From a plasmid: 64,000 nucleotides of DNA. Every line of letters starts with the position of its first letter. The first letter of the stretch is position 1. Shown here one piece after another: positions 13,322-59,450 of this stretch. The stretch lies in the sequence record NZ_CP027239.1; one strand, given 5' to 3'. A program made the translations under genes and the position numbers. The notes below the pieces were generated by a model, which did no database searches, was not told the DNA's origin, and worked only from the letters and a program-made list of their open reading frames with translations.

Positions 13322-13340
13322 GACGGTCCCCTTTTAAGTT

Positions 13341-13359
13341 GAGCAGATTGATTCCGATG
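13341..13359 (-). promoter_or_regulatory. Motif-1 copy (CATCGGAATCAATCTGCTC) just upstream of the RBS of the 1,214-aa secreted protein gene
   Basis: Motif, then 7 nt, then AAAAGGGGA, then ATG. Confidence 0.55.
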
Positions 13360-13482
13360 TGCCGTCAACGGTAACAGAGAGGCATGCCGCAATCTTCGGC
13401 AAAAATGGCCCCGACGCTGCACTGATGCCGCGCAGACGGCGGCAGTGACACGCCCCGCGACGGCGGCTCTATCCTGGCCCGC

Positions 13483-14580
13483 ATGACCGATCCATCGGTG
13501 GCGGACATCGCCGCCACCATCGCCGCAGCCGAGACGCTGATCGGCGCCACCAGCAGCGCTGACGCCCACGCGGACCTGGCGGGCTACCTGCGCGAGTCGC
13601 AGATGGTGCTGCCGCTTCCTGAGCTCGACACCGAAGACGCCGCCATGGTGTGCGTCGATGGGGCGGTGGCCTGCGAGCAAACCGACACCCTGGCCTGGAT
13701 CGCCGCTGTCGCCACGGACAGCACCTCGCGGGTGATGCGGCGCAAGACCATGGTCGTTCCGGTGTCGTCGTCGATGGACCAGGTGCGGTCGGCGGTGATG
13801 GGCCTGTGCGAGATGTCAGCGGCGGTCGAGCTGTACGACTGCGGGATTGACGCGTGGATGGACGGGGGCCTGGTCACCCCGCTTCTGTCTGTGGCCACCG
13901 CCCTGCAGTCGGCGGACCCGCAAACGGCCACCGCCCTGTGTGACCTGCTGGATGAGGTCGACGCCGCCGCGATCATCGACGGCTACGTCGACCACGCCAC
14001 CCAGGGGTCCATGTCGGCGCTGCCCAAGCAGGACACGGCGAGCTCGTTCTGCATGGCGTGGTCGCAGGTCGACGCCCTGGACGAGCAAACCCGGCTCTGG
14101 CTGCCGCGCCGGCGGGACCGCACGGTCGCCGCGGCGGTGATCGGTGACGGACAGTTCTTGGCGCCGCGCCGGGGAGTGGAGGCGCTGCGGGTGGCGGCGA
14201 AACCTCCGAAGTCAGGGCACCGTCGAGCTACGGCGTGGGCCCGCGTGCTGGAGGACTTGATGGCGGACTGGCGGGAACTGGTCCATCCCTGGGTCACCTA
14301 CGCCGTCCCTGCCGGAGCGACGATTGGCAGGGCCGTGAAGGTCGAGCTGACCGCGCCGGCTACAGCCAGCTCCAGTGAGGTCGTCGAACTGGCAGGGCGC
14401 CGCGCGGGGCAGGCCTGCGCCGGGCTGACTGGTTCGCGGGTGATCGAGCCGTACCAGCAGTACGTCGTCGACCACCTCGCGAAAACCGAAGTCCGGGGGC
14501 TTCTTTCCCGCCTAGTCGGGCAGGCCCAGTCTGCTCTGATGCGCGATCATCCCGGCGCCGTGTCGCATTTTCGGAGCTGA
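13483..14580 (+). CDS. Hypothetical protein (365 aa)
   Basis: Long ORF divergent from the secreted-protein gene. No recognised domain. Confidence 0.55.
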   Translation: MTDPSVADIAATIAAAETLIGATSSADAHADLAGYLRESQMVLPLPELDTEDAAMVCVDGAVACEQTDTLAWIAAVATDSTSRVMRRKTMVVPVSSSMDQVRSAVMGLCEMSAAVELYDCGIDAWMDGGLVTPLLSVATALQSADPQTATALCDLLDEVDAAAIIDGYVDHATQGSMSALPKQDTASSFCMAWSQVDALDEQTRLWLPRRRDRTVAAAVIGDGQFLAPRRGVEALRVAAKPPKSGHRRATAWARVLEDLMADWRELVHPWVTYAVPAGATIGRAVKVELTAPATASSSEVVELAGRRAGQACAGLTGSRVIEPYQQYVVDHLAKTEVRGLLSRLVGQAQSALMRDHPGAVSHFRS

Positions 14581-21583: not shown

Positions 21584-21710
21584 TGATGACCCTAACAGCC
21601 CAGTGCGCGTTATTGCATCTTCAACGCGAACATTCGACGAATAAACGCACTGCCTGAGGCCGATGCCTGTCGGGTGCCACAGATGTCGCACCCGCCTGAG
21701 ACGATGCGGC

Positions 21711-21727
21711 CATCGGAATCAGACAGC
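21711..21727 (+). promoter_or_regulatory. Motif-1 copy (CATCGGAATCAGACAGC), 30 nt upstream of the sbcD-like GTG
   Basis: Divergent partner of the copy at 21565-21583. Confidence 0.55.
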
Positions 21728-21756
21728 GGGACCGGCGTCGCGCCGGAAAGGAGCCA

Positions 21757-23093
21757 TCGTGGCCTACAAGATCGGCGTTCTGGGATGCCAGCACCTCGGC
21801 TACCGCATGCGCGCCATGCGGATGCACCCCTCGGGACTGAACCTGCGAGAAGTGGACGGGTACGTCGCTCACCGCCTGACCTACGAGTCCATGCTCGCTG
21901 CCGGCGTGAACGGCATCGTCGACGGTGGCGACTTGTTCCACGTGGCAGAGCCCAGCCCCGAGTCCGTCAACGCGGCCCTGCGAGTCGACGACCTGCGGGT
22001 GGACGCCTCTCCCGACGATCGGTTCATCTGGCGCGTCGGCAACGGCGGCAACCACGACAACGGATCAGGCCGGCATCGGGCCGCAGTGTCGGCGCTGCAC
22101 CGCCCGCACCTGGCCAGCCACGCGGTGTTCCCCGATCCCACACGGCCCGAGAGGGAGGCCGTCACCCCGTACCCCGGCTACTACGAGATCCACCAGCCCG
22201 ATCCGGACGTGCCGCTGTACCTGCACGTGATCTCGCACAACGGCTTGGACCCGGCACTGGCAGACCGGGGGATCAACATCGACCCACAGCCGCTGCCTGG
22301 CGGGGTGAACCTGCTGTTCGCCCACGGCATTTTCGCGGCAGATGGGCGGCTGTTCGGCGCCGACGAAAGGCACGGGGCTGAGCGGGTGATCCCCGCCGAG
22401 TGGGCCGACCGCGGGTTCGATCATTACCTGCTGTCGGACTATCACACGCTGGGCCCGATCCCCGGTTTCGGACCCGACGACGGCTACGAGCGCGGCCAGG
22501 TCTGGATGACTGGCAGCCTTCTGACCAGGGGTTTTAGTGATGAGATCGCCGGTCGTGGCTGGCTCGAAGTGGAGCTGCGCGACGACGGCACGGTCACGGT
22601 GACCCCACGCTACATCTGGCAGCGCCCGCAGGTCGATTTCCCAGTTCTGGACGCCTCCCAACTGTCGGTCGAGCAGATCGACCAGCAGGTCCGGGCACGC
22701 TTGCACGCCCAAGCCATGACCGACGAGGAGTCGGCCGAACTGACCGGCGATGGGGGAGCGTTGCTGAGGCAACGCATCAGCGGGGCGTCACCGTCGCAGA
22801 AGCCGGCGCTGCGGGCCGCGGCGATCGAGTGGGCGCACCTGGCGGCCGAGGCCGCGTTCTTCGGGGTCAGCTTCATCAACTCCACGAGCCTGACCGCCAA
22901 GCCCGGTGAGCGTGGCGAGACCGGCGAAGCCGGACCCGCGCGGGTGACCGATTACGTCGGCGAGTTCACCTCTCGCGCCGACGGCGACGGCGCTGTTGCT
23001 CGCGCCCTCAATGCCCTGCCCGGCGAGGTTCGCGCCCGCGTCGCCGACCGCACCCGACGAGTCCTGGCCGACGTGGCCGTCGACGCCGACTAA
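21757..23093 (+). CDS. SbcD/Mre11-family calcineurin-like phosphoesterase (nuclease subunit)
   Basis: Motif II DGGDLFH (Mre11-type), motif III GNGGNHDN, motif I region LGCQHLGY with Cys in place of the canonical Asp. AAAGGAG lies 7 nt before GTG 21757. Confidence 0.75.
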
Positions 23094-23112
23094 CAGACCT
23101 GGAGGAGACATC

Positions 23113-25476
23113 ATGCGCATCACCCACCTGCACGGGACGAACTTCCGATCCCTGGACGACGTCGCGCTCGATCTGACCGACGACGGCATGATCGCCCTGA
23201 TCGGCGCCCCCGGCAGCGGGAAGTCGTCGCTGCTGTCACTGGTGCCGTTCGTGCTCTACGGCGACACCGGACAAAACGGCACCCTGACCGATCTGCGCCG
23301 CCGGGGCAGCGACGAGAACGAGCGGTGTGGCGGCACCATCACCCTCACCCACAACGGGGATCGGATTGAAGCCAGCCGCTGGCTGACCCGCACCCGCCCC
23401 AAGGGCAGGATCAAGGAGACCGGACACGCCTCCCTGGCCATCAACGGTGAGTTCGTCGACGGCATCACCCCGACCCGACTCACCAGCGAAATCACGCGCA
23501 TCTTGGGCCAGCCCAAGGACGCGTTCCGGGGCGCGAACTTCATCGGGCAGGGCGAGGTCGACGTGCTGGCCACCGCCACCCCGACCGAAGTGCAGGCCCT
23601 GGTGGAGCATCACACCGGCCTTGCTCCACTGACGAAGGCCCGCCAGCGGGCCAGGGAGGCGGCCCGCGAGGCCGCGACCAAGGCCAAGGCGTTGCCCGGC
23701 GACGAGGCCGACCTCCGAGTGGCCGAGAGCAACCTCGCCGAGGCTGAGGATGAGACCGCCGAAGCCCGCGAGGCCGCCCGCACCGCGGGTGCGCAGCGCG
23801 ACCGGTCCCGCGAGAACCTGGACGCCGCCACTGCCGAGGCTGACCGACTGCGCGAGGCCACCGATGCCGCCCGCTCCAGCAAGGACCGTCTCGTCGGAGC
23901 TCGCGCCATCGCGGCATCCGCCCGGGACCAGCTCGCCCAGACCATCCGAGAGGCAGAGCCCGCCATCGGCGGGATCGACCTCGACACGATCCCCGCCCAG
24001 ATGGCCGACGTGGACGCCAAGCTGCAGGAACTGACCGACGCCGGAGTCGCCTACAAGCACTTCCGGACGGCTGCGGCCCGCGCAGAGTCCTACGCCGCCG
24101 AAACCCACCGGACTGCCCAGGGAATCGACCGGGAGGCGCTGGGCCGCGAGGTGGACGAGGCCAAGGCCAAGATCGTGGCGGCCGACTCCGACGGCAGGGC
24201 CGCGGCCGAGCTCGGCGCGGCAGCCGAGGCCGAAGCGCGGCGCATCGAGCGCGCACTTGACCAGCTCAACCATGCCGAGTCAGGCAAGGCCTGCTGCCCG
24301 ACATGCCGTCAGCGGGTCGCCGACCTGGACGGGTTGCGGGCGCAGTTCCAGCAGGAGCTCGCCGACTGCCAGGACCGGCTGGCCAAGGCCCACGCTGCCC
24401 GGCGCACCGCAGGCGCCGCGCACGAGCAGGCCAGTGATGCACTGGCACGGGCCACGGCCACCCTTCGCGACGCGGACACGGCGGCGAGGGACGCCGCGCG
24501 GGCCGATCAGGACCGCCTCGCTGCGGTCTCCACTGCAGACGAGCGGGCGCAGGTGCTGCGTGCGGCGATCACGGCCCTCGACGGTCAGGTCGATCCGCAC
24601 TGCCAGGGCCAGGAGCTGCTGGACGCCGGGCTGACAGCCCACGCCCACGCCAAGCAGGCCCTGGCCGGGATGCAGGCCGCCCAGCAGGCCGGGCAGGCGA
24701 TCAGTCGAGCGCACGCCGCGGTCGCGAACGCCGACCAGGCCGTCGCCGCTGCGCAGGAGGGGCTGCGCGATGAACCGGACCCGGAGGCCCTGCGGGCGGC
24801 CGTGGAGACGGTCAGGCAGCTGCAGGCCGACCACGACGAGAAGGTCGCCGCAGCTTCCCGCGCCGAGCGGCTGCTCAGCGCCTGCGAAGTGGGGGCGGGG
24901 GAGATGCGCGTGCGGGTGGAGGCCGAACGCGCCAAGTGGGACGCCAAGAGCAAGGCCCTGACCGACGCAGAAGTCGCCGCCGGCACCGCCGACGCGATCA
25001 CCGCGCTGCGGTCGGAGTTGCTGGCCGAGTACACCGGCCAGATCTCGACGTCAGCCACGGAACTGCTGGCGCGGTTCGGTGGCGAGCACGTGGCGTTCCA
25101 CCTGGACTCGGACTTCGTGCCGCGGGTGGAACTGCTGGACGGCACCCTGGTCGACACCCGCACCCTGTCAGGCGGGGAGAAGGCCCGGGCCGGGCTGGCG
25201 TTCCGTCTCGGGATCACCCTGCAGATCACCCAGGGCGGGGTGCCCGACCAGGTGTTGGGCGACGAGGTGACCAACTACCTCGACGAGGACGGGCGCCGCG
25301 CAGTGATCGCCGCACTGCAGCAGCTGTTCCCGTCGGTGGTGCTGATCTCCCACACCAGCGAGGCGTTGGACTTCGCTTCACGCACGATCAGCCTGGATCG
25401 GGACCCCCTCGGGGCCACCACCGTGCATGGTCAGCCGCAGCCCGAGCCGGAGTCGGCTCTGGCCGAAGCGGTCTGA
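23113..25476 (+). CDS. SbcC/Rad50-family ATPase with coiled coil and CxxC zinc hook
   Basis: Walker A GAPGSGKSS. Long Ala/Glu/Arg-rich coiled coil. Hook CCPTCRQ. Signature LSGGEKARAGLAF. Walker B VLGDEV, D-loop and H-loop LISHTSE. GGAGGAG before ATG 23113. Confidence 0.8.
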   Translation: MRITHLHGTNFRSLDDVALDLTDDGMIALIGAPGSGKSSLLSLVPFVLYGDTGQNGTLTDLRRRGSDENERCGGTITLTHNGDRIEASRWLTRTRPKGRIKETGHASLAINGEFVDGITPTRLTSEITRILGQPKDAFRGANFIGQGEVDVLATATPTEVQALVEHHTGLAPLTKARQRAREAAREAATKAKALPGDEADLRVAESNLAEAEDETAEAREAARTAGAQRDRSRENLDAATAEADRLREATDAARSSKDRLVGARAIAASARDQLAQTIREAEPAIGGIDLDTIPAQMADVDAKLQELTDAGVAYKHFRTAAARAESYAAETHRTAQGIDREALGREVDEAKAKIVAADSDGRAAAELGAAAEAEARRIERALDQLNHAESGKACCPTCRQRVADLDGLRAQFQQELADCQDRLAKAHAARRTAGAAHEQASDALARATATLRDADTAARDAARADQDRLAAVSTADERAQVLRAAITALDGQVDPHCQGQELLDAGLTAHAHAKQALAGMQAAQQAGQAISRAHAAVANADQAVAAAQEGLRDEPDPEALRAAVETVRQLQADHDEKVAAASRAERLLSACEVGAGEMRVRVEAERAKWDAKSKALTDAEVAAGTADAITALRSELLAEYTGQISTSATELLARFGGEHVAFHLDSDFVPRVELLDGTLVDTRTLSGGEKARAGLAFRLGITLQITQGGVPDQVLGDEVTNYLDEDGRRAVIAALQQLFPSVVLISHTSEALDFASRTISLDRDPLGATTVHGQPQPEPESALAEAV

Positions 25477-25480
25477 GACT

Positions 25481-25512
25481 GCCGCGGGCCCCGCGGGGGC
25501 GCCCCCGCGGGG
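25481..25512. terminator. GC-rich hairpin between convergent sbcC-like and moxR-like genes
   Basis: GCCGCGGGCCCCGCGGGGGCGCCCCCGCGGGGCCG contains nested inverted repeats. Confidence 0.4.
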
Positions 25513-25515
25513 CCG

Positions 25516-26748
25516 TCACCAGGTGCTGGGCACCGACTGGTGAGTAGCGCCGGATACCAGCGCCCCTCCGGCGGCGAAACGGTCGCCGAACCGCCGACGG
25601 AACAGCGCCAGCGTTTCCTCCCGGTCCGCCAGGGTCGGCGCCTTGGACACCAGCGCTTCCGCGGCGAACTCGACGTCGACCGCGGTAGCCAGGTCCCGCA
25701 CGGCCAACAGCTCACGCAGCGACGGAACCCACCTGTCGAGACCGTCGGCCCGGTCCGCGTCCGCCCGCCGCTTCAACGCTTCCGCCACGTCGATCACCAC
25801 GGTCGGTACCTCCAACTGGTGGGCGGTGGCGAAGTCGGTGGGCACCTCGATCACCAGGGCCATGCGGTTGCGTACCGGCTCGGATAAGCCCGGGCCGTTG
25901 CCCGGGTTGAACGTCAGGATGAGCGTGAACCCGTCGGCGGCCTGCAGATGCTGGGTGCCGGGCCGGTCGATCACGTCGATACTGCGGCGCGTGTCCAGCG
26001 CCGGATGCAGCGCCGTCTGCACCCCCTGGTGCAGGGCGCCGGCATCGTCGAGCAGGAGAGGGCGTCCCTGTTCCATGGCCCGCCACAGGGGCCCGTCGAT
26101 CCACTTGAACGGGCCTTCGTCGCCCGGTACCGGCTGGTGCAGTCCCACCAGGTCCGGCCATGTTGTCGCTGTCGAGCAGGGCACGATGATCAGCTCGTCA
26201 CCGAGCGCTTCGCGCACCAGGGTCGTCTTGCCCGAACCCGGCGGGCCACCGAGGGCGATCGGCTGTCCGGTCTCGGCGATCGTGCGGATGATGTGGACGT
26301 CGGAGCGGCCGGCCAGGGTGCGGGGAATGTAGGTGTCCCGCATCTGGCGGGCCAGGTCCGGTGACAGTTGGACGATCATCTCCAGGAACGTGTCTGGGTC
26401 GGCCCGCATCGTCCTCTCCGCGTTCACGGCGAGCGCGAACTCGCGGGCGATCACCTCCGCTGGCCTCTGCGTTGTCGCCAGGTCGTCGTCGATGTTGATC
26501 ACTCCGGGCCGCACGTGGTGGGGCACTTCTCCGGGAGCGCACTGTTGCTCGATCTCGCGGGCCGCCGCCCTCAGCGCCTCGACTCGAGCCTTCGGCGAGG
26601 GAGGGAGAGGGTCATGTCGGGACAGGGGATCGGTGGCGCTGCCCCACACCCGAATCCCGGTGTCGGTGACGAGGTTGACGTAAGTCGAGTCGACCTCATC
26701 GTCGAACTGGTCCTCGTCGGGGACGAACCCAAACCCGAACGCCAGCAT
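25516..26748 (-). CDS. MoxR/AAA_5-family AAA+ ATPase with a roughly 170-aa N-terminal extension
   Basis: Walker A GGPPGSGKTTL and Walker B LLLDDAG. RBS GAAGGGA before ATG 26748. Confidence 0.75.
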   Translation of the reverse strand: MLAFGFGFVPDEDQFDDEVDSTYVNLVTDTGIRVWGSATDPLSRHDPLPPSPKARVEALRAAAREIEQQCAPGEVPHHVRPGVINIDDDLATTQRPAEVIAREFALAVNAERTMRADPDTFLEMIVQLSPDLARQMRDTYIPRTLAGRSDVHIIRTIAETGQPIALGGPPGSGKTTLVREALGDELIIVPCSTATTWPDLVGLHQPVPGDEGPFKWIDGPLWRAMEQGRPLLLDDAGALHQGVQTALHPALDTRRSIDVIDRPGTQHLQAADGFTLILTFNPGNGPGLSEPVRNRMALVIEVPTDFATAHQLEVPTVVIDVAEALKRRADADRADGLDRWVPSLRELLAVRDLATAVDVEFAAEALVSKAPTLADREETLALFRRRFGDRFAAGGALVSGATHQSVPSTW

Positions 26749-26851
26749 CTGTCGTGAACGTCCCTTCGTGTGCCACCCCTGCGGCCGGGGTCGTTGCCGC
26801 GATCGTATCGGCCCACCATGCCGCCGCTAGGCGGGCTACGCGACCGCCGGT

Positions 26852-26867
26852 CGGCGGCATGCCCGGC
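26852..26867 (+). promoter_or_regulatory. Motif-2 variant (CGGCGGCATGCCCGGC) in the divergent moxR/VWA promoter region
   Basis: Lacks the A of ATGACC. Confidence 0.35.
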
Positions 26868-26919
26868 TGATACAACAGGTGCCTGCATCCGTTGCCGGCA
26901 GCGAGGAGTGGCCGCACCC

Positions 26920-28548
26920 ATGGCGCTATGGTCCGTCACCGAGGAGTCGGTGCTGCTCATGCTGCAGGGCTGGGGAGCGGCGGTGGAGCAGGTCCGCATC
27001 GTGCCCACTGGCTCGTCCGGGGCGCCGGCGCCGGTGTACCTCGATGGCGACACCGCGGTGATCGAAGCCGAACGGGCCGGCCTTCCCCGTTCCGCGCAGG
27101 GTGTGAAGGTCGACTCGCTGACCCATCAGCTCAACGATCCCCGTGCAGCCGCCCGATTGGCGGCGGTGTGCGCCCCCTTAGTCACCTCGACCTGGCGGCA
27201 CGCCGGCCTTCCGTCGGACCCGCGGCTCGCCGGGTTGATGCTCGAGCTCGACCAACTGCGCGCCGAGGCCCAACTGCGGCGCCGCCAGCCCTCCCTGCGG
27301 CTCCTGCTGCCCACGATCAGCACGTGGCTGGCCCGCACGCCGATCTCCGGCAGTGACGATGCCGCCGCCTACCAACTGCTGACCGCCGTGTGCCCGAGAG
27401 CGGACGCCCTGGTGTTTCCCACCTCGACCACAGAGCACGTGAAGCCCGCACTCGTGGACTACCTCGGACCCGCCGTGATGCGCGAGTACGTCACCACATG
27501 GCGGCGCATCCTGGCGGCCCCGGACCAGCGCTCCGCAGTGATGTCGCTGGCCGACACCTGGCTCCAACTGGCCGATGCCCGGCTTCCCCGCCACCACGAC
27601 CGCACGTCCAATCCCGAACTGCTGTCCAGGGTCAGTCGCCGCGCCACCTCCGACCTCGAGCAGGCCGAGGCGACTGCACTGGAGGCGGTCGCCTCGCTGC
27701 GCGCCGACCTGGACGCCACCGCCACGTCAGAGCGCCGCACCACAGAACTGGACCCCGACCATGGGATCGCAGGCGCCGGAACAGGCCTGCCCGCGCACCG
27801 GTCCCTACGACACCGGCCCGCCACGGAAGAAGATCACCTTCTGCGAACGCAGCTGCGCGCGGCACTGTCGGTAGCCAAACGGCGCCAGCTATCCACCGTG
27901 GACCACCCCACCCAAGCACCCACCGGCAGGACCGACACTCGCGAACTGGTCCGCATGAGCGCACAGCAGCACGCCGGCACCCCGGTCACCGCCACCCCCT
28001 GGACCCGGCACATCCCCGAGATGGACGACCAGCCCGACATCCGGGTCGCCGCCGTGCTGGATACATCCGCGTCCATGGCACCGTGGCTGGAGTCGGCGAC
28101 TGCGTTGATGTGGGCAGTGGCCTGCGCAGCCCGCGACCTCGGCGGATCCGCCACCGTATGGGGGTTCGGCGGCGACGCCTTCGAGATCGTCCGCATCGGC
28201 TCGGCGCCCCACCTCGTCCCGCAGATCCGCGACACCGGCGCCGGCTCCGACGGATACGCCGAGGCCGTGAGCCGGGCCTGCGACTCCGCGGATCTGATCG
28301 GCAGTCGAGGCGCCCGCCTGCTGGTGGTGCTGACCGATGGCCGACTGAAAGACCCGGAGGAGGCCCGCCGACTGCAGCAGACCCTGGCCGACGCCGTTGC
28401 CAGCGGCGTCACCGTCCTATGGGCCCTGACCGGAGGCACCACCAACGCTCTGGTCCCGGACCAAGCAATCGTCGCTCAGGGGGTGACCCCGCGCCGCTTC
28501 GCCGAAGCCGTGAACCGCGTCCTGATCAACACCGTCAGCGCCACCTGA
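26920..28548 (+). CDS. von Willebrand factor A (VWA) domain protein, partner of the MoxR-like ATPase
   Basis: MIDAS motif DTSASM plus downstream LLVVLTDG. GAGGAG before ATG 26920. Upstream in-frame starts at 26770 and 26818 are possible but lack an RBS. Confidence 0.7.
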   Translation: MALWSVTEESVLLMLQGWGAAVEQVRIVPTGSSGAPAPVYLDGDTAVIEAERAGLPRSAQGVKVDSLTHQLNDPRAAARLAAVCAPLVTSTWRHAGLPSDPRLAGLMLELDQLRAEAQLRRRQPSLRLLLPTISTWLARTPISGSDDAAAYQLLTAVCPRADALVFPTSTTEHVKPALVDYLGPAVMREYVTTWRRILAAPDQRSAVMSLADTWLQLADARLPRHHDRTSNPELLSRVSRRATSDLEQAEATALEAVASLRADLDATATSERRTTELDPDHGIAGAGTGLPAHRSLRHRPATEEDHLLRTQLRAALSVAKRRQLSTVDHPTQAPTGRTDTRELVRMSAQQHAGTPVTATPWTRHIPEMDDQPDIRVAAVLDTSASMAPWLESATALMWAVACAARDLGGSATVWGFGGDAFEIVRIGSAPHLVPQIRDTGAGSDGYAEAVSRACDSADLIGSRGARLLVVLTDGRLKDPEEARRLQQTLADAVASGVTVLWALTGGTTNALVPDQAIVAQGVTPRRFAEAVNRVLINTVSAT

Positions 28549-28627
28549 GCAGGGCGCCGCACCTACACCACAACTACGACAGCCCGCCGCTACCGTGACC
28601 CCACCGCAGCCAGAAAGGACCCACCCC

Positions 28628-29671
28628 ATGACCGCCCCAGCGCACAACAGTGACGTCACCCCGATCACCGCCATCACCGCGGACCAGCTAGACACCCTCG
28701 ACCCGAACCTGCTCACCCCGCCCCTGGTGACCAGCGACGGACACCACGACGAGATCGGCGCCGCCCACGGCCGAGTACTGCCGATGATCGGCCGGTGGCG
28801 GCCGTACGTGGTGGACGTCAACGCCACCAAGCTCGCAGGCAAGGGCACCCGCATCTACGCCGACACCGCCGACGACGCCGTGGCGATGCTCGTCGGCGGC
28901 GACGCGCCCGCGGCGATCGCCGAGCTGCGCGCAGCCAGAGACGACCTCGGCGTGGACCCCGCTCCCGAACCGCCACCGACCAGGGACGAGTTGCTCCTGA
29001 TCGGCGCGGACGATGCCGACGACGAGGCCCTCGCGTTCGTCGAAGAGCTCGACCCTCAAACCCAGCAGGCCTACGACGAGTACCGGGCTCGGCGTGACCG
29101 GCTGGAGGCGGCGCAGATGCGGGTCGCTGCGCTGCTGACCGACCATGCGACCGGGGTGCGGATACGGCTGCAGCAGCAGCTCAACGCCGCCGCTGTCGAT
29201 GACGGCCGCTGGGAACGCCTGGACGAGGACGAACGCGACGAGCTGACTGCCTGCGCGGCCACGGGCGAGCAGGGGCGGCGCCCGTTCGGGATTCCGGAAA
29301 TGGTGCCGTTCTTCGACGAGGACGGCGAGGAGGCCGGCGAGGTCGCGCGGGGCGAGTGGCGGGCCGATGTGCCGCTGGTGTGTCTGCGCACTGACTACCT
29401 GCCGTTCACGGGCACGGCGTCGCCTCTGTCGGTGGTGACAGGGACCGCCCCCACAGGGGCGGAGTTCTGGGTGCCGGGCGATCCGAATCTGGTGTGGCTC
29501 AACCCCGCCGATCCCGCTGACTACCTGCAGTCACTTGCCGATGCCGGGCTGGTGGAGCTCACGGAGCGGCCGGTCGACCACGCCGTCGAGCTGATGCGTC
29601 CGTGGCTGAGGGAGAAGCGGCAGCGCGACCTTGAGCGGGCGCAGGCGGCAGCCGCCAGTCAGGGCGACTAA
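28628..29671 (+). CDS. Hypothetical acidic protein (347 aa)
   Basis: GAAAGGAC lies 8 nt before ATG 28628. Confidence 0.5.
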   Translation: MTAPAHNSDVTPITAITADQLDTLDPNLLTPPLVTSDGHHDEIGAAHGRVLPMIGRWRPYVVDVNATKLAGKGTRIYADTADDAVAMLVGGDAPAAIAELRAARDDLGVDPAPEPPPTRDELLLIGADDADDEALAFVEELDPQTQQAYDEYRARRDRLEAAQMRVAALLTDHATGVRIRLQQQLNAAAVDDGRWERLDEDERDELTACAATGEQGRRPFGIPEMVPFFDEDGEEAGEVARGEWRADVPLVCLRTDYLPFTGTASPLSVVTGTAPTGAEFWVPGDPNLVWLNPADPADYLQSLADAGLVELTERPVDHAVELMRPWLREKRQRDLERAQAAAASQGD

Positions 29672-36979: not shown

Positions 36980-39796
36980 TTAGCTCCAGATCGAAGGTTC
37001 TTCGTCGAACTCGTCGGCCGCATTCACCGGGCGCTCGGGTTCCACGTTCACAGGGTGAGAGCGTCCCGCCGGCGTAGACGCACGGCGTCCGCCGCGGGCC
37101 TTAGCTGTGGGCCCCGACGGTTCGTCCAGTGCGGGCGTGGTATCGGGACCAGGCAGAGTCGGTTGATCCTCGAGCTCGTCGTCCTGCGAGTCGAGCTCAG
37201 GAGCTTCGTCTGGGTGATCGGAGCCGGGGGCGTCGTCGCTGTCCGTGACCAGATACAGCTGGGCAGGTTCGGCGGAGGTAGCGGGCGCCGCAGCCTCGCT
37301 GCTGCCCTCGTCGAGGATCACCCATCGGGGTTCCTGGCCGCCGTCGGCGTTGGTGACGGTGATCTGCTGGTAGCCGAGGTTGCGTAGTCGTTCGCGGGTC
37401 ATGTCTTTGGTGCCTCGCAGCGTTTGCGCGGGGTCCCAGGGGCACGGCATCGGGTCGTCGGGCAGGAACATGACCTGCACCTGCCGGTACCCGTTCTTGG
37501 GGTCGTAGCCCCACGCTCGGCCCTTGGGGGTGCCGGCCTCCGGGAAGCGGGTGCCGTGGTTGGAGTTGAGGATCTGCTCGGACTCGTACTGGTCCAGGGG
37601 GCCGACGCCGAGTCGGAATCCGAGCTGGGAGCGCAGCTGGGTGGAGATGATCTTGGCGTCCGGCTTCTGGGCGGCGCACACGATGTTGGTTTCCAGGGCT
37701 CGGCCGAGCCGGGCGATTTTCTCGAGGCTGGCTCGGGCTTCGTCCTTGAGTTCCTCCGTCTCGCTGTCCGCGCCGCGGGCCAGGAAGTCGGCGATCTCGT
37801 CGAAGAACAGGATGACCCGCTTGGGCACCGGTCCGTATTGCGCTTCCAGTTCCGGTTGCTGGGCGTACTTGGCGCGCAGCAGGCCCAGGTTGCGGGCCTG
37901 GGTGCGGTTGAGCAGGGTTTGAGCGGCGTCCATGCTCGCTCGTGCCGCGCCGACAGCGGCGCAGATTTCTTCGTCGGTGGCGGCGAATCGGATCACCGAG
38001 GGGAACTCTGGGGTCCAGGTGAAGTCGGTGCGTTTGGGGTCGCACACGATCACCGACAGGACGTCGGGCAGGTACATCGCGTAGAACAGCACGATCGACA
38101 GGGCTACCGACTTCCCGGATCCCGTCTTGCCGCCGATCAGGCCGTGCGGAGTCTCTCCGAGATCCCAGTCCAGCCAGCCTCCGCCCTTCTGTGGGCCGAA
38201 CCGGAAAATCCCCTTGTGGGCGAGCGTGACCGCCTCGTCGAACTCGGGTGTGCCGGGCTCGGGGAAGGCCAATTCTGTCGGCAGTGGAGGCACCGCGGTG
38301 ATGGTGACCTTCCCCTTGGGGGCGTCCCACGAGTAGTGCCAGTCGTTGTCGGTGCTCAGGCTGTCCCAGTGGTCTTGGAACCCGTCGCGGGTGTCGCGGG
38401 CGTTGACGTCCATGGACCCGAACTTCACCTCGGCGACCTGCACCATCGCCGAGCCGTCGGCGCTGAGTTCGGGTTGCCACTCGAGGATGTCGCAGTCGAC
38501 GAAGTTCTTGCTGGAGCCGAACTTGGACTCGATCACGTTGCGCAGGTTGCGTTCGGTGACCTTGCGGCGGGCCTGCATGCTGCGGGACGGGTACGCGGTC
38601 GCCTCGAGCCGGGTGGTTCCGCCAGGCGTCCAGTCGTACAGCCAGGTCAGGCCCTGGTAGCTGGCCTCCATGGCGGTGTCGAAGTCGGACTCGAACTTGT
38701 TGCGGACGCGGCGATCGCCGAGGTTGAGGGTGTCGAAGTCGATGGACACCGCCACCGGGTAGTGCTCGGGGAACTTCTTGCCCTCGGGCATCCATCGGGT
38801 GACTTCGCAGTCGATGCTGGTGGTCTTGGTGGTGCGGATCATCGAGTAGACGTCGGCGATGATCTTGCGGGCGACGATTTTGCGGCGGGCCCGCAGGTCG
38901 TCGTCCGGGACGAGCTCGATCTGCAGCTCCCCGTCGGTGGACCAGTCGTAGACCCACACGCCGGGGCCGCGGACCTTGCGATCGAACTCGGCGGTGACAC
39001 GCTCACGAAACTGGGGGTCGGTGGCATCGAACCCGCCGTATGACCAGGTCACCTTCGTGGGGAACTGGTAGGTCGTGCCGTTGCGTTCGCTCTCGGTGCG
39101 CTCTTCCACGGTCAGGGCGAAGTCGTAGTCGCCGGCGTTGCGGGCAGCGTCGAACAGGGCCCGGTCGCCGAGCGATCGGGCCATCTTGCGGTCGTGGCTG
39201 CGCTGCCAGACGCGGGGGTCCTCAGCGGGCACGGCGGTGGCCGTCACGTGTGAGGCGTCAGCCCACTCGAAGATCCATTCCTGTCCGTCCGCGGGCGGAG
39301 GCGTGGCTTTCTGGATCGCCTGCTCGAGCGGCATCCGCAGATAGGGGGCGGTGGTGGCGGGGGAGTCGGGACCGACGGTGAGCGTGAAGGTGCTCGGCTT
39401 GGCCTTGGCGCCCCACTTGGCGACTGTGACGTAGGAGTCGGGGCTGACCGGAGTGGTGGCCGTGGACCTGGGTAGGGCCGCAGGGCGTTGCATCGCCGCG
39501 TAGATCGCGGCGGTGGCTTTGCGCCGTCTGGGCATCACCGCCCCGGCCCGGGACAGCGTGTAGAGCAGGAACACGGCCAGGGCGATGCCGGCCCACATGC
39601 GCGGCACGACGGCAAAGTACAGCGCCGCGATCAGTGCGGCCAGCATTGCCCAGTTCACCGCCACCAGCGGGACGGGGCCGAGCTTGGTGCCGTCCTTCAC
39701 CCAGGTCAGTGCAGCCCAGTCGCTGAGCAGCTGCTGCCCCTGCTTCTGCGCCTGCTGCTGGATCCTCGATGGGGGGCGTTTCCGGCCGCGAGCCAT
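36980..39796 (-). CDS. traB: TraB-like conjugative DNA translocase (FtsK/SpoIIIE family) with N-terminal TM anchor
   Basis: TM helices VPLVAVNWAMLAALIAALYFAVV and AGIALAVFLLYTL. Walker A GGKTGSGKSVAL and Walker B ILFFDEIADF. C-terminal wHTH-like tail. GGAAGGA lies 11 nt before ATG 39796 (alternative ATG 39832). Confidence 0.8.
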   Translation of the reverse strand: MARGRKRPPSRIQQQAQKQGQQLLSDWAALTWVKDGTKLGPVPLVAVNWAMLAALIAALYFAVVPRMWAGIALAVFLLYTLSRAGAVMPRRRKATAAIYAAMQRPAALPRSTATTPVSPDSYVTVAKWGAKAKPSTFTLTVGPDSPATTAPYLRMPLEQAIQKATPPPADGQEWIFEWADASHVTATAVPAEDPRVWQRSHDRKMARSLGDRALFDAARNAGDYDFALTVEERTESERNGTTYQFPTKVTWSYGGFDATDPQFRERVTAEFDRKVRGPGVWVYDWSTDGELQIELVPDDDLRARRKIVARKIIADVYSMIRTTKTTSIDCEVTRWMPEGKKFPEHYPVAVSIDFDTLNLGDRRVRNKFESDFDTAMEASYQGLTWLYDWTPGGTTRLEATAYPSRSMQARRKVTERNLRNVIESKFGSSKNFVDCDILEWQPELSADGSAMVQVAEVKFGSMDVNARDTRDGFQDHWDSLSTDNDWHYSWDAPKGKVTITAVPPLPTELAFPEPGTPEFDEAVTLAHKGIFRFGPQKGGGWLDWDLGETPHGLIGGKTGSGKSVALSIVLFYAMYLPDVLSVIVCDPKRTDFTWTPEFPSVIRFAATDEEICAAVGAARASMDAAQTLLNRTQARNLGLLRAKYAQQPELEAQYGPVPKRVILFFDEIADFLARGADSETEELKDEARASLEKIARLGRALETNIVCAAQKPDAKIISTQLRSQLGFRLGVGPLDQYESEQILNSNHGTRFPEAGTPKGRAWGYDPKNGYRQVQVMFLPDDPMPCPWDPAQTLRGTKDMTRERLRNLGYQQITVTNADGGQEPRWVILDEGSSEAAAPATSAEPAQLYLVTDSDDAPGSDHPDEAPELDSQDDELEDQPTLPGPDTTPALDEPSGPTAKARGGRRASTPAGRSHPVNVEPERPVNAADEFDEEPSIWS

Positions 39797-39936
39797 AGAT
39801 TCGCTGTCCTTCCGGTGGTGGGTCGGCCACATCGTCCCACCTGCTCATGCCGGGGCCTGGCGCCGTTTTCGCGGGGTATGGGCAAGGGCCCGGCCCCGTG
39901 AGTCAGGGTCGGGCCCTTCGGCCGGCTCTGGCGGGT

Positions 39937-42741: not shown

Positions 42742-42894
42742 GCGCTCATTCTCCCGTTCCAATTCGCTCTCCTCGGGCGGAATGACCGCCCGAGGAGAGC
42801 GCGGCCCCGGAGGGACCTCATCCGGTACGCGTCCGATCAGCCCAACGCGGTCCCCTCCGGCGTTACCCGGCTGCCCCGGCCACACTCGCTTACA

Positions 42895-43497
42895 TCAGAA
42901 CGGGGGTTCGTCGTCCTGGCCGCCGAAGCCTCCGCCCGCGTTGGCACTGGCGGCAGCGCCCCACGGGTCGTCGATCTGGTCAGATCCCTGACCACCTCCG
43001 AAGCCGCCACTCTGCTGGCCGCCGCCGAAGCCTCCCTCGGGCTGACCACCACCGAAGCCGCCCTGGCCACCTCCCTGGGGCTGGCCGCCGCCGAAGCCGC
43101 CACCCTGCTGGCCGCCGCCCTGGTTGCCGCGGCTGGTGCGGGTGACCTTGGCGGTGGCGTACTTGAGGGACGGGCCGACCTCGTCGACCTCGACCTCGTA
43201 GACGGTGCGCTTCTCGCCCTCGCGGGTCTCGTAGGAGCGCTGCCGCAGCCGGCCGTTGACGATGACGCGCATGCCCTTCTGCAGCGACTCGGCGACATTC
43301 TCCGCCGCCTGCCGCCAGACGTTGCAGGTGAGGAACAGGCCGTCGCCGTCTTCCCACTGGTTCGTCTGGGAGTTGAAGCGGCGCGGGGTGGAGGCGATGC
43401 GGAAGTTGGCGACCGCGGCGCCCGACGGGGTGAACCGCAGTTCCGGGTCGGCGACGATGTTGCCGATGACGGTGATGGGGGTGTCGCCCTGACTCAT
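42895..43497 (-). CDS. ssb: Single-stranded DNA-binding protein
   Basis: OB-fold start [29 protein letters not shown]. Gly-rich tail ending DDEPPF. AGGAGA RBS. Confidence 0.9.
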
Positions 43498-43651
43498 GGT
43501 GTCTCCTAGGTCGTGGGTTCAGGCGGTGAGCCGGTGTGCCGGTCTCGGGCAGGAGCATCGCACGACGATTTGCCGGTGTGGCGTCTCCGCGACCTGCACG
43601 TTGACGGGAATCGCCGGCAGAGTCTCGCTGGTCAAAGGCAAGGGAAGGGGA

Positions 43652-43863
43652 GGACCATCGCCGCTCGCGTGGGGAGCACGCGGCGCCGGCCTGGAGGATG
43701 CGCCGTTGCATGGGACCATCACCGCTCGCGTGGGGAGGACCCCCGTACAGTGCGTCGGGCTGGAGCTGGCCCCAGGACCATCCCCGCTCGCGTGGAGAGC
43801 ACTTGCCTCACCTGATGCAGACACCAGCTATCTCCGGACCGTCCACGCTCGCGTGGAGAGCAC
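43652..43863 (-). CRISPR. Orphan CRISPR-like mini-array: four 28-nt type I-E-like repeats at 61-62 nt periodicity with three unique 33-34 nt spacers
   Basis: Repeats at 43652, 43713, 43775 and 43836 share consensus GGACCATCNCCGCTCGCGTGGRGAGSAC. The reverse complement, GTSCTCYCCACGCGAGCGGNGATGGTCC, resembles the I-E repeat class such as E. coli GAGTTCCCCGCGCCAGCGGGGATAAACCG. Spacers show no similarity to each other. No cas genes in the window. Confidence 0.55.
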
Positions 43864-44018
43864 ACTCGCTACGCTGCGGGTTTTCTCCGTGTACGCGTGG
43901 TTGGGGATGGGTTCGGGATTGCTCCCGAACGGTGACCACCGCGGTGGCCTTCACGCTTCGCCGGTCCCGCGCCGTTCCCGCCTGATAGCGGTTCGGGCAC
44001 GGGGCCTCCACGTGCATT

Positions 44019-44059
44019 AACGTCCCCACCCTCCGTGGGGACGGCCGCCCTCTCCGGCG
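44019..44059. terminator. Tandem hairpins downstream of the 546-aa gene (GTCCCCAC-cctcc-GTGGGGAC, then GCCGCC-ctctcc-GGCGGC)
   Basis: Perfect 8-bp and 6-bp inverted repeats about 60-100 nt past the stop codon at 44121 on the minus strand. Confidence 0.45.
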
Positions 44060-44120
44060 GCTACGGCGCGGCCCGGGCCCCGACTATGCGGGCGGATGTG
44101 ACCACATAGTCGGGTGCCTG

Positions 44121-45761
44121 TCAGGCGGGAATCTGCTCGGGGTACTCCTTGTAGGCGTCGTGCGCTGCCTTGGTGAACGCCTTGGGGTCGGCCAGACCCG
44201 CGCGCACCATGCGCTCGAACCGGTCGGCCGGGATCCTGCTCGACAGGTGGGTACCGAAGTTCTTCCGCAGGATCGGGTTCAGCTGATCAAGGTGCTGGGC
44301 CATGCCGATGGTCTCGATCAGCTCGTCCCACAGGCCCTGCAGGTCGTGGCGGTCGGCCAAGGTCTGCCCCTCCGGCACCGCCAGCGCAGAGTTCTCCACG
44401 GCGGGAGCAGGGGCCGGTGCCTGCTCCTGCGCGGGCTCCTGCGGTGCCGACTGCTCGGGCGGCGCCTGCTGTGCCGACTCCTGCTCGGGGACGTTGTGGC
44501 CGCCACCGTCGGGGCCGCCGCTGGAGGGCGCGCCGACGATGTCGGATGCCACTTCCAGGGCCAGCGCGTACAGGTCGCCGGCCGCCGCGGCGACCCGCTT
44601 GATCCATTCGGAGCTCTCGTGTCGATCCTCGACGTACTCGAGGACGAAGGGCTGCTCCGCCAGGGCGACCTGGGCCACCCACTTGGCGGCCTCGCGCCAC
44701 GACGGCTCGGTCTGGCGCTGGTAGCCCAGTGCGGTCTGCTGGACCCGGCTCGCGGCCCACATGAGCGGCTTGATCAGCTCGGTCGCCGCGCGGCTCAGGC
44801 GCTCATCGCCCAGCTGTGCCGCCTTCTCCGGGTCGGCGTAGGCGGCGCTCTGCACCAGGTCGAGGGCGTCCTTACGGGCCCAGCGGACGGACTGCACGAT
44901 GTACGAGGCCGGGTTGAGTCGACCGTCGAGGTTGACCAGCTCCCACGGCTTGCTTTCGACTGACCGCAGGCGCTGTACGGGCCGGTCAGTGTCGTCGCCC
45001 CGCATGATGCTGACGACCTGCTCGGCGATCTGGCGGGCATCGACTGCGCCGCCGGTCGGTGCGCCGGGCGCGGCTGCGGGGGAGGCGTTGTCGGAGCGGA
45101 CGATCGCGCCGCCGGTCTCGCCTGCCTCGGTGAAGATGCGGACCCAACCCTCGGGCGGTGTGGAGCCGTCGCGGTTGTGCCGGAACAGGTCCCACTCTTC
45201 GGGGTTGGTGGAGGCTTCCGCACTGATGACGTTGCGGGAAGGGTCGCCGGCGGGACCCACGACGGCGATCACGTTGGCGCAGTTCTCGCCCGTGATGTTC
45301 GAGTTGGCGCCGCTGCCGTCTGGCGCTGAGCCGCGCAGCACGCACATCGGCACGGTGTACGGGATGACCTCGCCGGACTTGTTCTTGTAGCGGCGGCGGG
45401 TCTCGATGGCCACGTAGACCGGTTCGCCATGCTCATGAGCCCAATGCAGCGCTCGGTGCACCTCCGAGCTCTCAACGGTGGAACCGGAGAAGTCGTGCCT
45501 GAGCTTCTTGTCGCTGCCGGTCTCCGAGGATGCGGCATCGAACGTCACCGACACCGAGCGCACCCCGCCGCGGCCCTCCCTGTCGGAGACCTTGATCTCC
45601 TTGACCAGAACGGACGTGAACTCGCGGACGTACACCTCGGGACGCACGGGCCGCTGCGTGACGTCGCCGTCAGCGGTGAGCTTGACCGCGACGGGCTTGG
45701 TCGGTGCGCTGGCGTAACCGATCCAGCTGGTCGGGTGGGTCTGGCGGGTGAAGGTCGTCAT
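44121..45761 (-). CDS. Hypothetical protein (546 aa) with a Gln/Pro/Glu-rich linker; candidate replication/recombination function from context only
   Basis: GAAGGAAC before ATG 45761. Flanked by ssb and the CRISPR-like array on one side and the rusA-like and dnaB genes on the other. Confidence 0.6.
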   Translation of the reverse strand: MTTFTRQTHPTSWIGYASAPTKPVAVKLTADGDVTQRPVRPEVYVREFTSVLVKEIKVSDREGRGGVRSVSVTFDAASSETGSDKKLRHDFSGSTVESSEVHRALHWAHEHGEPVYVAIETRRRYKNKSGEVIPYTVPMCVLRGSAPDGSGANSNITGENCANVIAVVGPAGDPSRNVISAEASTNPEEWDLFRHNRDGSTPPEGWVRIFTEAGETGGAIVRSDNASPAAAPGAPTGGAVDARQIAEQVVSIMRGDDTDRPVQRLRSVESKPWELVNLDGRLNPASYIVQSVRWARKDALDLVQSAAYADPEKAAQLGDERLSRAATELIKPLMWAASRVQQTALGYQRQTEPSWREAAKWVAQVALAEQPFVLEYVEDRHESSEWIKRVAAAAGDLYALALEVASDIVGAPSSGGPDGGGHNVPEQESAQQAPPEQSAPQEPAQEQAPAPAPAVENSALAVPEGQTLADRHDLQGLWDELIETIGMAQHLDQLNPILRKNFGTHLSSRIPADRFERMVRAGLADPKAFTKAAHDAYKEYPEQIPA

Positions 45762-45908
45762 TACTGTTCCTTCGGCGTTCGGGGTGGGTCCGTGTTGCCC
45801 ACATCAAATCACGCCGCACTGACACTGCAGCACGACGAAATCGTGGCTGATCAGCGCGGCGGGCGCCTCGCCATTTCTCCGCACCGCGCGGTCGGTGTTC
45901 GGGGCCGT

Positions 45909-58399: not shown

Positions 58400-59450
58400 A
58401 AGACCTCCGTGTGAGGTGTGAAAGCGACAAAGCAACCACACTCACAACGGAGGTCTTCATGTCCCACGGTAACGCCCCGCTGACTCCGACGGGCAGGCTG
58501 CGTCTGGCCCGGTGTGTCGTCGAGGACGGCTGGACCCGTGTCCGTGCTGCCGAGCGGTTCAACGTCTCGGTGGGCACCGTGCGCAAGTGGGTCAACCGGT
58601 ATCGCGAGTACGGCAAGGACGGCATGGTCGATCGCTCCAGCCGGCCCCACCACAGCCCGGGCCGGACACCGCGGCGGCGGGAGCGGCGGGTGATCGGCCT
58701 GCGCGTGTCCCGCCGGTGGGGGCCGGCCCGGATTGCCTACCACCTGGGCATGCAGCCCTCGACCGTGCACAAGATCCTGTCCCGCTACGGCTGTCTGCGC
58801 CTGTCGTTCACCGACCCGGCCACCGGCGCCCCGGTGCGTGCCGGCAAGCGGCAGGTGCGCCGCTACGAGCACGAGGCACCGGGCGATCTGGTGCACGTGG
58901 ACATCAAGAAGCTCGGCCGCATCCCCGATGGCGGTGGTCACAAGGTCCTCGGCAGAGCCAAGGGAAAGCGCAACAGCAAGCGTCGAATGGGCTACTGGTA
59001 CATCCACAACGCTGTCGATGACCACTCGAGGCTGGCTTATAGCGAGCTGCTGGAAGATGAGCGCAAGGAGACCGCGGCCGAGTTCTGGAAGCGGGCCGAG
59101 GCCTTCTTCGCCGATGCCGGTATCACCGTGCGCCGGGTCCTGACCGACAACGGCAGCTGCTACCGCTCCCATGCCTTCGCCGACGCCCTCGGAACCGAGG
59201 TCACGCACAAGCGCACTCGCCCGTACCGGCCGCAGACCAACGGCAAAGTCGAGCGCTACAACCGCACGATGCTCGAGGAATGGGCCTACGCCGAACCCTA
59301 TTCCTGCGAAGCCGACCGCGCGGCACGTCTACCGGCCTTCCTGCACCACTACAATTTCCACCGCGGCCACACCGCGCTAAGAGGCGCCTCACCCGCAGAC
59401 CGCGTACACAACCTGCGTGGACAGTACAACTAGCCCTTTGTCGGTAACGA
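58400..59450 (+). mobile_element. IS481-family insertion sequence (about 1.0 kb)
   Basis: Single DDE transposase ORF flanked by short inverted CGACAAAG(C/G) cores at 58425 and 59444. Interrupts the oxidoreductase gene. Exact ends and target-site duplication are not resolved. Confidence 0.7.
58459..59433 (+). CDS. IS481-family DDE transposase
   Basis: Start MSHGNAPLTPTGRLRL, two N-terminal HTHs, and catalytic DIKKLG .. LTDNGSCY .. QTNGKVERYNRTM. Confidence 0.85.
   Translation: MSHGNAPLTPTGRLRLARCVVEDGWTRVRAAERFNVSVGTVRKWVNRYREYGKDGMVDRSSRPHHSPGRTPRRRERRVIGLRVSRRWGPARIAYHLGMQPSTVHKILSRYGCLRLSFTDPATGAPVRAGKRQVRRYEHEAPGDLVHVDIKKLGRIPDGGGHKVLGRAKGKRNSKRRMGYWYIHNAVDDHSRLAYSELLEDERKETAAEFWKRAEAFFADAGITVRRVLTDNGSCYRSHAFADALGTEVTHKRTRPYRPQTNGKVERYNRTMLEEWAYAEPYSCEADRAARLPAFLHHYNFHRGHTALRGASPADRVHNLRGQYN

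Follow-up and report, generated by a model that had tools for sequence, protein, structure and literature searches.

To which type of CRISPR system does a short repeat array belong when no CRISPR-associated (cas) gene lies beside it? The question is raised by a 64,000-nucleotide (nt) stretch of plasmid DNA (sequence record NZ_CP027239.1), referred to as the window, in which four repeats are found between the gene of a 546-amino-acid (aa) protein and ssb. Comparison with homologous loci (the labels L008, L012, L138 etc. denote comparison contigs or records that carry homologous DNA) indicates that the window array probably stems from a type V-N (Cas12n) CRISPR locus, now degraded, on a large Dietzia plasmid-like replicon. 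The array is assigned to type V-N because the same module is present in relatives, because the DNA adjoining the array is homologous to the scaffold of that module, and because codons 444-490 of the cas12n tail have been retained. The site is composed as follows, where PAM stands for protospacer-adjacent motif and tracrRNA for trans-activating CRISPR RNA:

42895..43497, minus strand: ssb gene, downstream neighbour (Pfam SSB, 3e-30)
43498..43602, minus strand: conserved ssb upstream region, 90% identical to that of the array-less L008
43651..43863, minus strand: CRISPR array of four repeats and three spacers (repeat search; strand from the relatives and the PAM side)
43864..44046, minus strand: tracrRNA-type structured scaffold, 183 nt (homology to the region overlapping the cas12n 3' end in relatives)
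43902..44042, minus strand: cas12n tail remnant, equivalent to residues 444-490 (tblastn with the Dietzia Cas12n)
44047..44120, minus strand: junction DNA, 74 nt, from the stop codon of the 546-aa gene to the scaffold; no counterpart in relatives
44121..45761, minus strand: gene of the 546-aa protein, upstream neighbour; a plasmid-family marker with no function assigned

The same site in related replicons

The 546-aa protein belongs to a small family of homologs. An identical 546-aa gene is found in six contigs (from NCBI, ENA, JGI and Logan); in each of them the intergenic DNA matches the window at 100% identity, array included, and the spacer content is constant in all copies of this array version. 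Since such identity is uninformative on constraint, the comparison was moved to more distant relatives.

In Dietzia sp. 179-F (L012, JBIQES010000006.1) a 525-aa homolog is followed by a gene at 12606-14108 for a 500-aa protein, which bears the annotation TnpB family, and then by a GC-rich scaffold, four repeats (GCGCTCCCCACGCGAGCGGGGATGGTCCS) with spacers of 32 nt, and ssb. The order in L149 is a 539-aa gene, cas12n, scaffold, two repeats and ssb. Both loci occupy the site of the window array, between the homolog of the 546-aa gene and ssb. The same module of cas12n, scaffold and repeats (five copies of GTGCGCCCCGCGCACGCACGGATGGTCCN) is found in D. cercidiphylli (L147), there in a different genomic context. 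A further locus, L138, was found by scanning metagenome contigs with the full-length degenerate repeat, in a sample shared with L003 and L008. It carries a cas12n fragment that lacks the 5' part, with the apparent end of an insertion sequence (IS) transposase just upstream, a scaffold block that directly continues the 3' end of the fragment, and six cleaner repeats with five spacers. None of the window spacers is shared with L012, L149, L147 or L138, and the repeats of L012 and L147 vary less among themselves than the window repeats do.

A different state is seen in L008-L010, where the 546-aa protein is 86% identical and only 146 bp separate its gene from ssb. The window segment 43603-44120 is entirely missing there; what remains is a single degenerate repeat stub, TTGCTCCGCACGCGAGCGGTGA, joined straight to the conserved ssb upstream region. 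As only this stub is kept, the array is dispensable for ssb and does not represent a conserved regulatory element. The sequence-only reading had placed the repeats in the ssb promoter region, but the conserved region upstream of ssb (43498-43602) lies downstream of the array and is kept with or without it. A single plasmid site thus displays a series of Cas12n locus states: intact, interrupted, deprived of the effector, and reduced to a single repeat stub.

More distant homologs of the nuclease (~50-55% identical) are encoded on a Streptomyces plasmid (L145), on a Mycobacterium avium plasmid (L146) and in Arthrobacter woluwensis (L153). They too are followed by arrays with a 61-nt period, each with a repeat sequence of its own; downstream of the Kitasatospora (L144) and Jiangella (L154) homologs no array was found. 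Altogether, arrays of 61-nt period with lineage-specific repeats are present at seven of the nine Cas12n-family loci with readable downstream DNA. A chance neighbourhood of a mobile TnpB gene and a type I-E array was considered as well and judged unlikely, because the junction of gene, scaffold and array is kept across ~50%-identical homologs with different repeats, and also because the protein is Cas12n-like.

Identity of the nuclease in the relatives

Judged by its sequence, the effector of the relatives is a Cas12n. The best match of the L012 protein among solved structures is 9J09/9UDI (E 3e-88, residues 6-438), where 9J09 is the Cas12n of Rothia dentocariosa (RdCas12n); the match to ISDra2 TnpB is far weaker (E 3e-32). 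In addition, the L012 protein is 56% identical to a protein of Actinomadura craniellae, the source of the other characterised Cas12n (PMC12216341, PMC11641405). The RuvC D/E/D motifs (GVDLG, VEDL and DRDVNAARN) and the zinc-finger cysteines are readable, and the protein of the relatives is scored by NCBIfam as a member of the TnpB family.

Cas12n is the effector of type V-N (formerly V-U4 or C2c9), with a length of 400-700 aa and a disordered C-terminal tail; its tracrRNA of ~170 nt overlaps the open reading frame (ORF), the CRISPR RNA (crRNA) measures 40 nt and the PAM is 5'-AAN (PMC12216341, PMC11641405). The descriptions of Cas12n make no mention of adaptation genes (PMC12216341, PMC11641405). 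According to the PAMPHLET preprint, C2c9 lacks a cas1/cas2/cas4 adaptation module and has the same PAM as co-occurring type I systems (10.1101/2024.04.09.587696).

Scaffold and cas12n remnant beside the array

The window scaffold ends exactly at the first repeat, on the upstream side of the array. Scaffold and first repeat together (43834-44049) are 95% identical to L138, and the region of scaffold and array is 78% identical to Dietzia sp. L012. The consensus fold of five homologous scaffolds has conserved helices (-78 kcal/mol) with four compensatory pairs, and size and layout agree with the published tracrRNA of RdCas12n (PMC12216341). Two sites of pairing between repeat and scaffold are predicted: the 5' GGCC with the first hairpin of the scaffold, and CCCATCCCC, located ~45 nt before the array, near the 3' end of the scaffold. 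In the RdCas12n single-guide RNA, the first site has its counterpart in the pseudoknot (beside stem 1) and the second in stem 5. The predicted duplex has an energy of -39 to -44 kcal/mol, a value reached by at most 1% of shuffles in three of the five loci but not in L147 and L149. On inspection, L145 (Streptomyces) and L146 (M. avium) also contain segments complementary to the repeat. GC-rich DNA eases chance pairing.

Within the scaffold lies the remnant of cas12n itself: 47 codons with 85% amino-acid identity (tblastn, E 5e-18), which correspond to the disordered C-terminal tail of Cas12n that overlaps the scaffold. Elsewhere in the 64 kb, tblastn gave no match to cas12n below E 2. Eight Cas proteins from a Streptomyces anulatus plasmid, used as tblastn queries for type I-E homologs in the same 64 kb, gave a best E of 0.2, and Pfam revealed no Cas domain among 40 window ORFs. 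The absence of cas genes from the 64 kb, as claimed in the sequence-only reading, is borne out by these searches, the 47-codon tail being the only trace.

The ancestral locus would have begun with the 546-aa gene, followed on the same minus strand by cas12n, by a tracrRNA scaffold that overlapped the 3' end of cas12n, and then by array and ssb. A deletion would then have taken cas12n up to the start of the scaffold, leaving the complete scaffold (43864-44046) and the array (43651-43863). In the intact system, going by the literature, Cas12n would be directed to DNA with a 5'-AAN flank by a crRNA, made of the 3' part of the repeat and ~20 spacer nt, that is paired with the tracrRNA.

Directly 3' of the stop of the 546-aa gene, at 44079-44114 in the junction DNA, there is a strong hairpin with a 14-bp stem that includes one non-standard pair (CCCGACTATGTGG...CCGCATAGTCGGG). 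It is absent in the relatives and may be a terminator or the scar of a deletion or insertion event.

Repeats of the window array

The repeat search of the window yielded four 29-nt repeats, each made up of 28 nt and one variable base, with periods of 61, 62 and 61 nt. From the scaffold onwards the array reads:

43835-43863, minus strand: repeat R4', scaffold-proximal, sequence GTGCTCTCCACGCGAGCGTGGACGGTCCG
43803..43834, minus strand: spacer Sa, 32 nt, GAGATAGCTGGTGTCTGCATCAGGTGAGGCAA; adjoins the scaffold side, target in D. kunjamensis plasmids
43774-43802, minus strand: repeat R3', second repeat counted from the scaffold
43741..43773, minus strand: spacer Sb, 33 nt, target not found
43712-43740, minus strand: repeat R2', third repeat counted from the scaffold
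43680..43711, minus strand: spacer Sc, 32 nt, target not found
43651-43679, minus strand: repeat R1', scaffold-distal

The copies are 83-100% identical to the first one and differ from each other at 2-4 positions. The repeat core CTCYCCACGCGAGCGNNGR occurs four times and nowhere else in the window, even when two mismatches are allowed; shuffles gave an expectation of 0.30 occurrences, and none of 100 reached four copies. Repeat search and shuffles thus confirm the four repeats, the period of 61-62 nt and the unrelated spacers of the sequence-only reading, as well as the repeat divergence that it gave; its coordinates (43652-43863, with a 28-nt repeat) describe the same repeats minus the variable 29th base. 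The array is indeed an orphan within the window and partly degenerate. Its sense strand is the minus strand, as follows from the orientation of cas12n and scaffold in the relatives and from the side of the PAM.

Rfam detected neither a CRISPR direct repeat nor another relevant family in the whole window (gathering threshold) or in 43400-44200 (E up to 10), and a BLAST search of plasmids with a single repeat returned no near-identical repeat. A scan of genome contigs with a loose 19-nt degenerate repeat core gave ~120 single chance matches, with no array among them, and a megablast of 42800-45800 against plasmids and phages matched ssb only.

Spacers, protospacers and PAM

Spacers Sa, Sb and Sc are mutually unrelated, and each is single-copy in the window; self-targeting was rejected since no spacer has a second copy there. 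Sa adjoins the scaffold and is for that reason taken as the newest spacer. Its nt 1-28, from the repeat-proximal end, are 100% identical to the Dietzia kunjamensis plasmids pDK313-83 (NZ_CP099715.1) and CP155441.1 (BLAST against 7.3 Gb, E 1e-4). The protospacer covers the ribosome-binding site and the start of a conjugation gene of the SCO6880 family, and is immediately preceded by 5'-AAG. No close homologs of the conjugation genes of the D. kunjamensis plasmid were found in the window, and the target of Sa is therefore considered a foreign plasmid. Sa was thus probably taken up from a competing conjugative plasmid of Dietzia. The occurrence of a natural target, flanked by an A-rich PAM, in such a competitor is direct evidence for the use of these miniature systems in conflicts between plasmids. 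The sequence-only reading had named spacers that match nothing among the outcomes that would speak against it; for Sa, at least, a PAM-flanked match in a Dietzia plasmid exists. Sb and Sc had no convincing match in searches of plasmids, phages and viral contigs: BLAST of the array against phages gave chance-level matches only, and a scan of viral contigs with the 22 repeat-proximal nt of each spacer gave none.

The first spacer of L012, 32 nt long, duplicates the leader-repeat junction of the same array, ACGCAGCGTAGGGAGTGCGCTCCCCACGCGAG (L012 14112-14200). AAC precedes the source sequence in the L012 leader, and the spacer looks like a self-derived acquisition. An AAN PAM on the repeat-proximal side therefore fits both Sa (AAG) and the L012 spacer (AAC), where n=2 and AAG is equally a PAM of type I-E. 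A further, weaker spacer match comes from the clinical M. avium plasmid pP4-4a (L146 3986-4220; also L150), which carries a Cas12n-family gene followed by an array of four repeats. One of its spacers matches parA of the Mycobacterium plasmid p20KCMC460_03 (30/33 nt, E 0.05), with AGC as the flank. In Sa, in the L012 spacer and in this weaker match, the variable 29th base of the repeat is the base just before the protospacer.

Repeat class and the origin of the spacers

That the last base of the repeat tracks the base before the protospacer is a behaviour of type I-E adaptation. The repeats themselves also belong to this class, so that "I-E-like", as the sequence-only reading had put it, was right as a description. 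The family consensus shares 24/29 positions with the repeat beside a complete I-E operon of the S. anulatus plasmid NZ_CP109348.1, with an equal period; ~96 Streptomyces plasmids align in register with the window array; and the I-E-class geometry of 28-29-nt repeats and 32-33-nt spacers is present. The combination of an I-E-class repeat and a 29th base equal to the base before the protospacer suggests that adaptation has been borrowed from I-E Cas1-Cas2. The spacers of the window would then have been installed by I-E-type Cas1-Cas2 acting in trans, and, more generally, the V-N arrays of these actinobacteria would be I-E-class arrays filled in trans by I-E adaptation proteins. Such sequence signs that Cas12n arrays without adaptation genes are filled by I-E-type machinery add to an earlier suggestion from shared PAMs (10.1101/2024.04.09.587696).

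A more far-reaching version holds that actinobacterial Cas12n arrays are in effect I-E arrays, serviced by I-E Cas1-Cas2 and readable by Cascade and Cas12n alike, and that the window cassette is kept as a trans guide module or as a decoy against rival plasmids. The servicing by I-E Cas1-Cas2 would account for both the 28+33 geometry and a 29th base derived from the PAM, and a genuine I-E repeat is predicted to pair just as well with the Cas12n scaffold (-43.9 kcal/mol). We nevertheless regard this version as unlikely.

I-E-like repeats of another spacing were observed in soil metagenome contigs (L140 6341-6560 and L136 956-1087). These repeats, e.g. ATGCTCCCCGCCTGTGCGGGGATGGTCCTT, recur every 50 nt with ~21 nt between them, and no homolog of cas12n or of I-E cas genes was found on the two contigs. 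They appear to be either mini-arrays of another kind or a group of solitary repeat units.

Functional state of the cassette

The cassette is most likely an inactive, frozen relic, because the nuclease is absent, three of the four repeats are mutated in the segment that should pair with the scaffold, and in L008 only a stub remains. The changes in R4', R2' and R1' fall within the pairing segment GGGGATGG and lower the predicted pairing to between -31 and -35 kcal/mol, as against about -42 kcal/mol; R3' is consensus-like and is predicted to retain the consensus pairing.

The alternative that the effector-less cassette is maintained for use in trans, where it would arm a Cas12n or Cascade encoded elsewhere or act as an RNA decoy for the Cas12n of a rival, seems to us quite unlikely. 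The deletion ends at the start of the scaffold, which means that an equivalent of the full-length tracrRNA survives, and the six identical copies of the cassette have differing flanking genes. Besides the predicted pairing of R3', it is in line with such a use that living Dietzia plasmids still match Sa over the 20 nt that Cas12n uses as guide and that cas12n-bearing relatives occur in the same metagenome (3300018405). Against it speak the alterations in the pairing segment of the other three repeats and a scan of 43400-44300 that found no promoter or terminator. Moreover, the spacer content is invariant among the copies, with no sign of continuing acquisition, a close relative (L008) has lost nearly everything, and the identity across contigs may reflect just a recent spread. 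Should an effector-less cassette be active in trans after all, it would be an unusual guide-only weapon.

Several observations weigh against the assignment to a degraded V-N locus, or against its details. Cas12n is absent from the window, so that the assignment is drawn from synteny and scaffold homology. Transcription, processing and tracrRNA pairing of the cassette are predicted, and a search for promoter-like sites gave none. Elsewhere on the ~228-kb replicon, or on the host chromosome, there may be a Cas12n or I-E system that acts in trans. The intergenic region is identical in contigs from several samples, which fits recent spread or maintenance alike. The PAM evidence of the Dietzia type amounts to two cases, and the distant protospacer of the M. 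avium type is flanked by AGC, not AAN. Finally, the family consensus of the repeats differs little from genuine I-E repeats, and I-E systems have AAG as their canonical PAM; on sequence alone, the array may be used by Cascade.

A stand-alone type I-E array as an unlikely alternative

If it were a stand-alone orphan I-E mini-array, the window array would be processed and used against competitors by Cas6e and Cascade of the host. The 29+32 geometry, the repeat class, the AAG at the Sa protospacer with the match on the seed side and the behaviour of the 29th base are all what such an array would display, and R4' forms a perfect 6-bp hairpin (predicted self-fold -11.1 kcal/mol). However, the other three window repeats fold weakly (-5.4 to -7.3 kcal/mol, compared with -14.3 kcal/mol for the I-E repeat of S. 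anulatus), and the I-E stem of the family consensus contains an A-C mismatch. Furthermore, the 183 nt upstream of the array are the Cas12n scaffold common to the cas12n-bearing relatives and not an I-E leader, which in the I-E-like array L139 is richer in AT. No I-E cas gene lies within the 64 kb, and the literature gave no type I-E system in Dietzia. This explanation, the one preferred in the sequence-only reading, is not borne out, as the array is continuous with a Cas12n scaffold and follows cas12n in relatives; we consider it very unlikely. For annotation, this means that repeat geometry alone leads to the call of an orphan I-E array, whereas scaffold and synteny lead to a type V-N locus.

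That the repeats are iterons or operator sites for a plasmid protein controlling ssb or replication, the other option of the sequence-only reading, can practically be discounted: their location between a cluster of replication genes (DnaB, a weak RusA-like match) and ssb and the short palindrome within each repeat would suit such sites, but the segment is absent in L008-L010 though the ssb upstream region is 90% conserved, copy number and inter-repeat sequences are wholly different among homologous loci, a foreign plasmid gene is the source of one inter-repeat sequence, and the same repeat type follows cas12n in unrelated contexts, e.g. in L147.

Comparison with known systems

Compared with the characterised type V-N systems (RdCas12n and the A. 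craniellae AcCas12n), the relatives share a homologous protein with a disordered C-terminal tail, a ~180-nt scaffold over the 3' end of the ORF, an array in the same orientation next to it and no adaptation genes nearby; the protospacers have A-rich 5' flanks (AAG, AAC). The window differs in that the effector gene is gone and the repeats are degenerate. The likeness was judged on effector, scaffold, layout and PAM.

The I-E locus of the S. anulatus plasmid (cas3-casABCDE-cas1e-cas2e) resembles the window array in its 29-nt repeat (24/29 identical), 32-nt spacers, 61-nt period and 5'-AAG flank. The window has no I-E cas genes, a scaffold instead of a leader and the A-C mismatch in the consensus stem, and the last base of its repeats varies (G, T or C), whereas that base is constant in the S. 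anulatus arrays.

Orphan or mini CRISPR arrays of plasmids and viruses reportedly take part in conflicts between such elements. The window array is similar to these in that it is a short plasmid array with no cas gene nearby and a spacer against a conjugation gene of a competing plasmid, but differs by its tracrRNA-type scaffold and by a history as a deletion derivative that is visible in relatives.

With the omega-RNAs of TnpB (IS607/IS605) the locus shares a guide scaffold that overlaps the 3' end of a nuclease ORF, as well as the NCBIfam TnpB-family score. Here, however, several repeat-spacer units follow instead of a single guide at a transposon end, the plasmid site is fixed in several relatives, and the protein resembles Cas12n far more than it does ISDra2 TnpB.

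Replicon and neighbouring genes

Three window proteins match exactly NCBI entries labelled 'MULTISPECIES [Dietzia]' and Dietzia cinnamea, among them AVM66217.1 / WP_106386848.1 and the D. cinnamea entry MCT1885260.1, and the largest contig that carries these three proteins measures 227,619 bp. By its proteins, the window replicon is a large Dietzia plasmid-like replicon, which supports the location on a mobile element given in the sequence-only reading. Pfam analysis of the 40 ORFs identified FtsK/TraB-like, DUF932, SSB, DnaB, YqaJ-exonuclease and HerA-like ATPase proteins, a large protein with a cutinase domain and an IS481 transposase.

Upstream of ssb a motif ACACCGGCAAATCG followed by TGCGATGCTCC is found in all relatives (window 43566-43581, L012 about 14395-14430, L008 about 7700-7730). 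The same motif is also located upstream of cas12n in L012 (12480-12495), and it may be a shared plasmid promoter or operator. The called SSB product has a length of 200, 192 or 152 aa among otherwise identical contigs (window 42895-43497, L001-L004), and the part of the window ssb that encodes the C-terminal tail contains tandem GC-rich repeats (42988-43130).

Window positions 21663-29671 encode an SMC/AAA_23-type protein of 826 aa, a MoxR-like AAA_5 ATPase and a number of large proteins that Pfam does not match, a cluster that may be a plasmid defence or partition system. The FtsK/TraB-like gene of L012 (19522-21578) has weak Pfam matches to Hom_end and LAGLIDADG_3, which suggests that it carries an intein that is lacking in the window copy (36980-39832). 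Finally, between 56000 and 64000 the GC content of the window falls from ~69% to 61-65% and a gene for an IS481-family transposase is present (58411-59433); this region may be the edge of a different module or recently acquired DNA.

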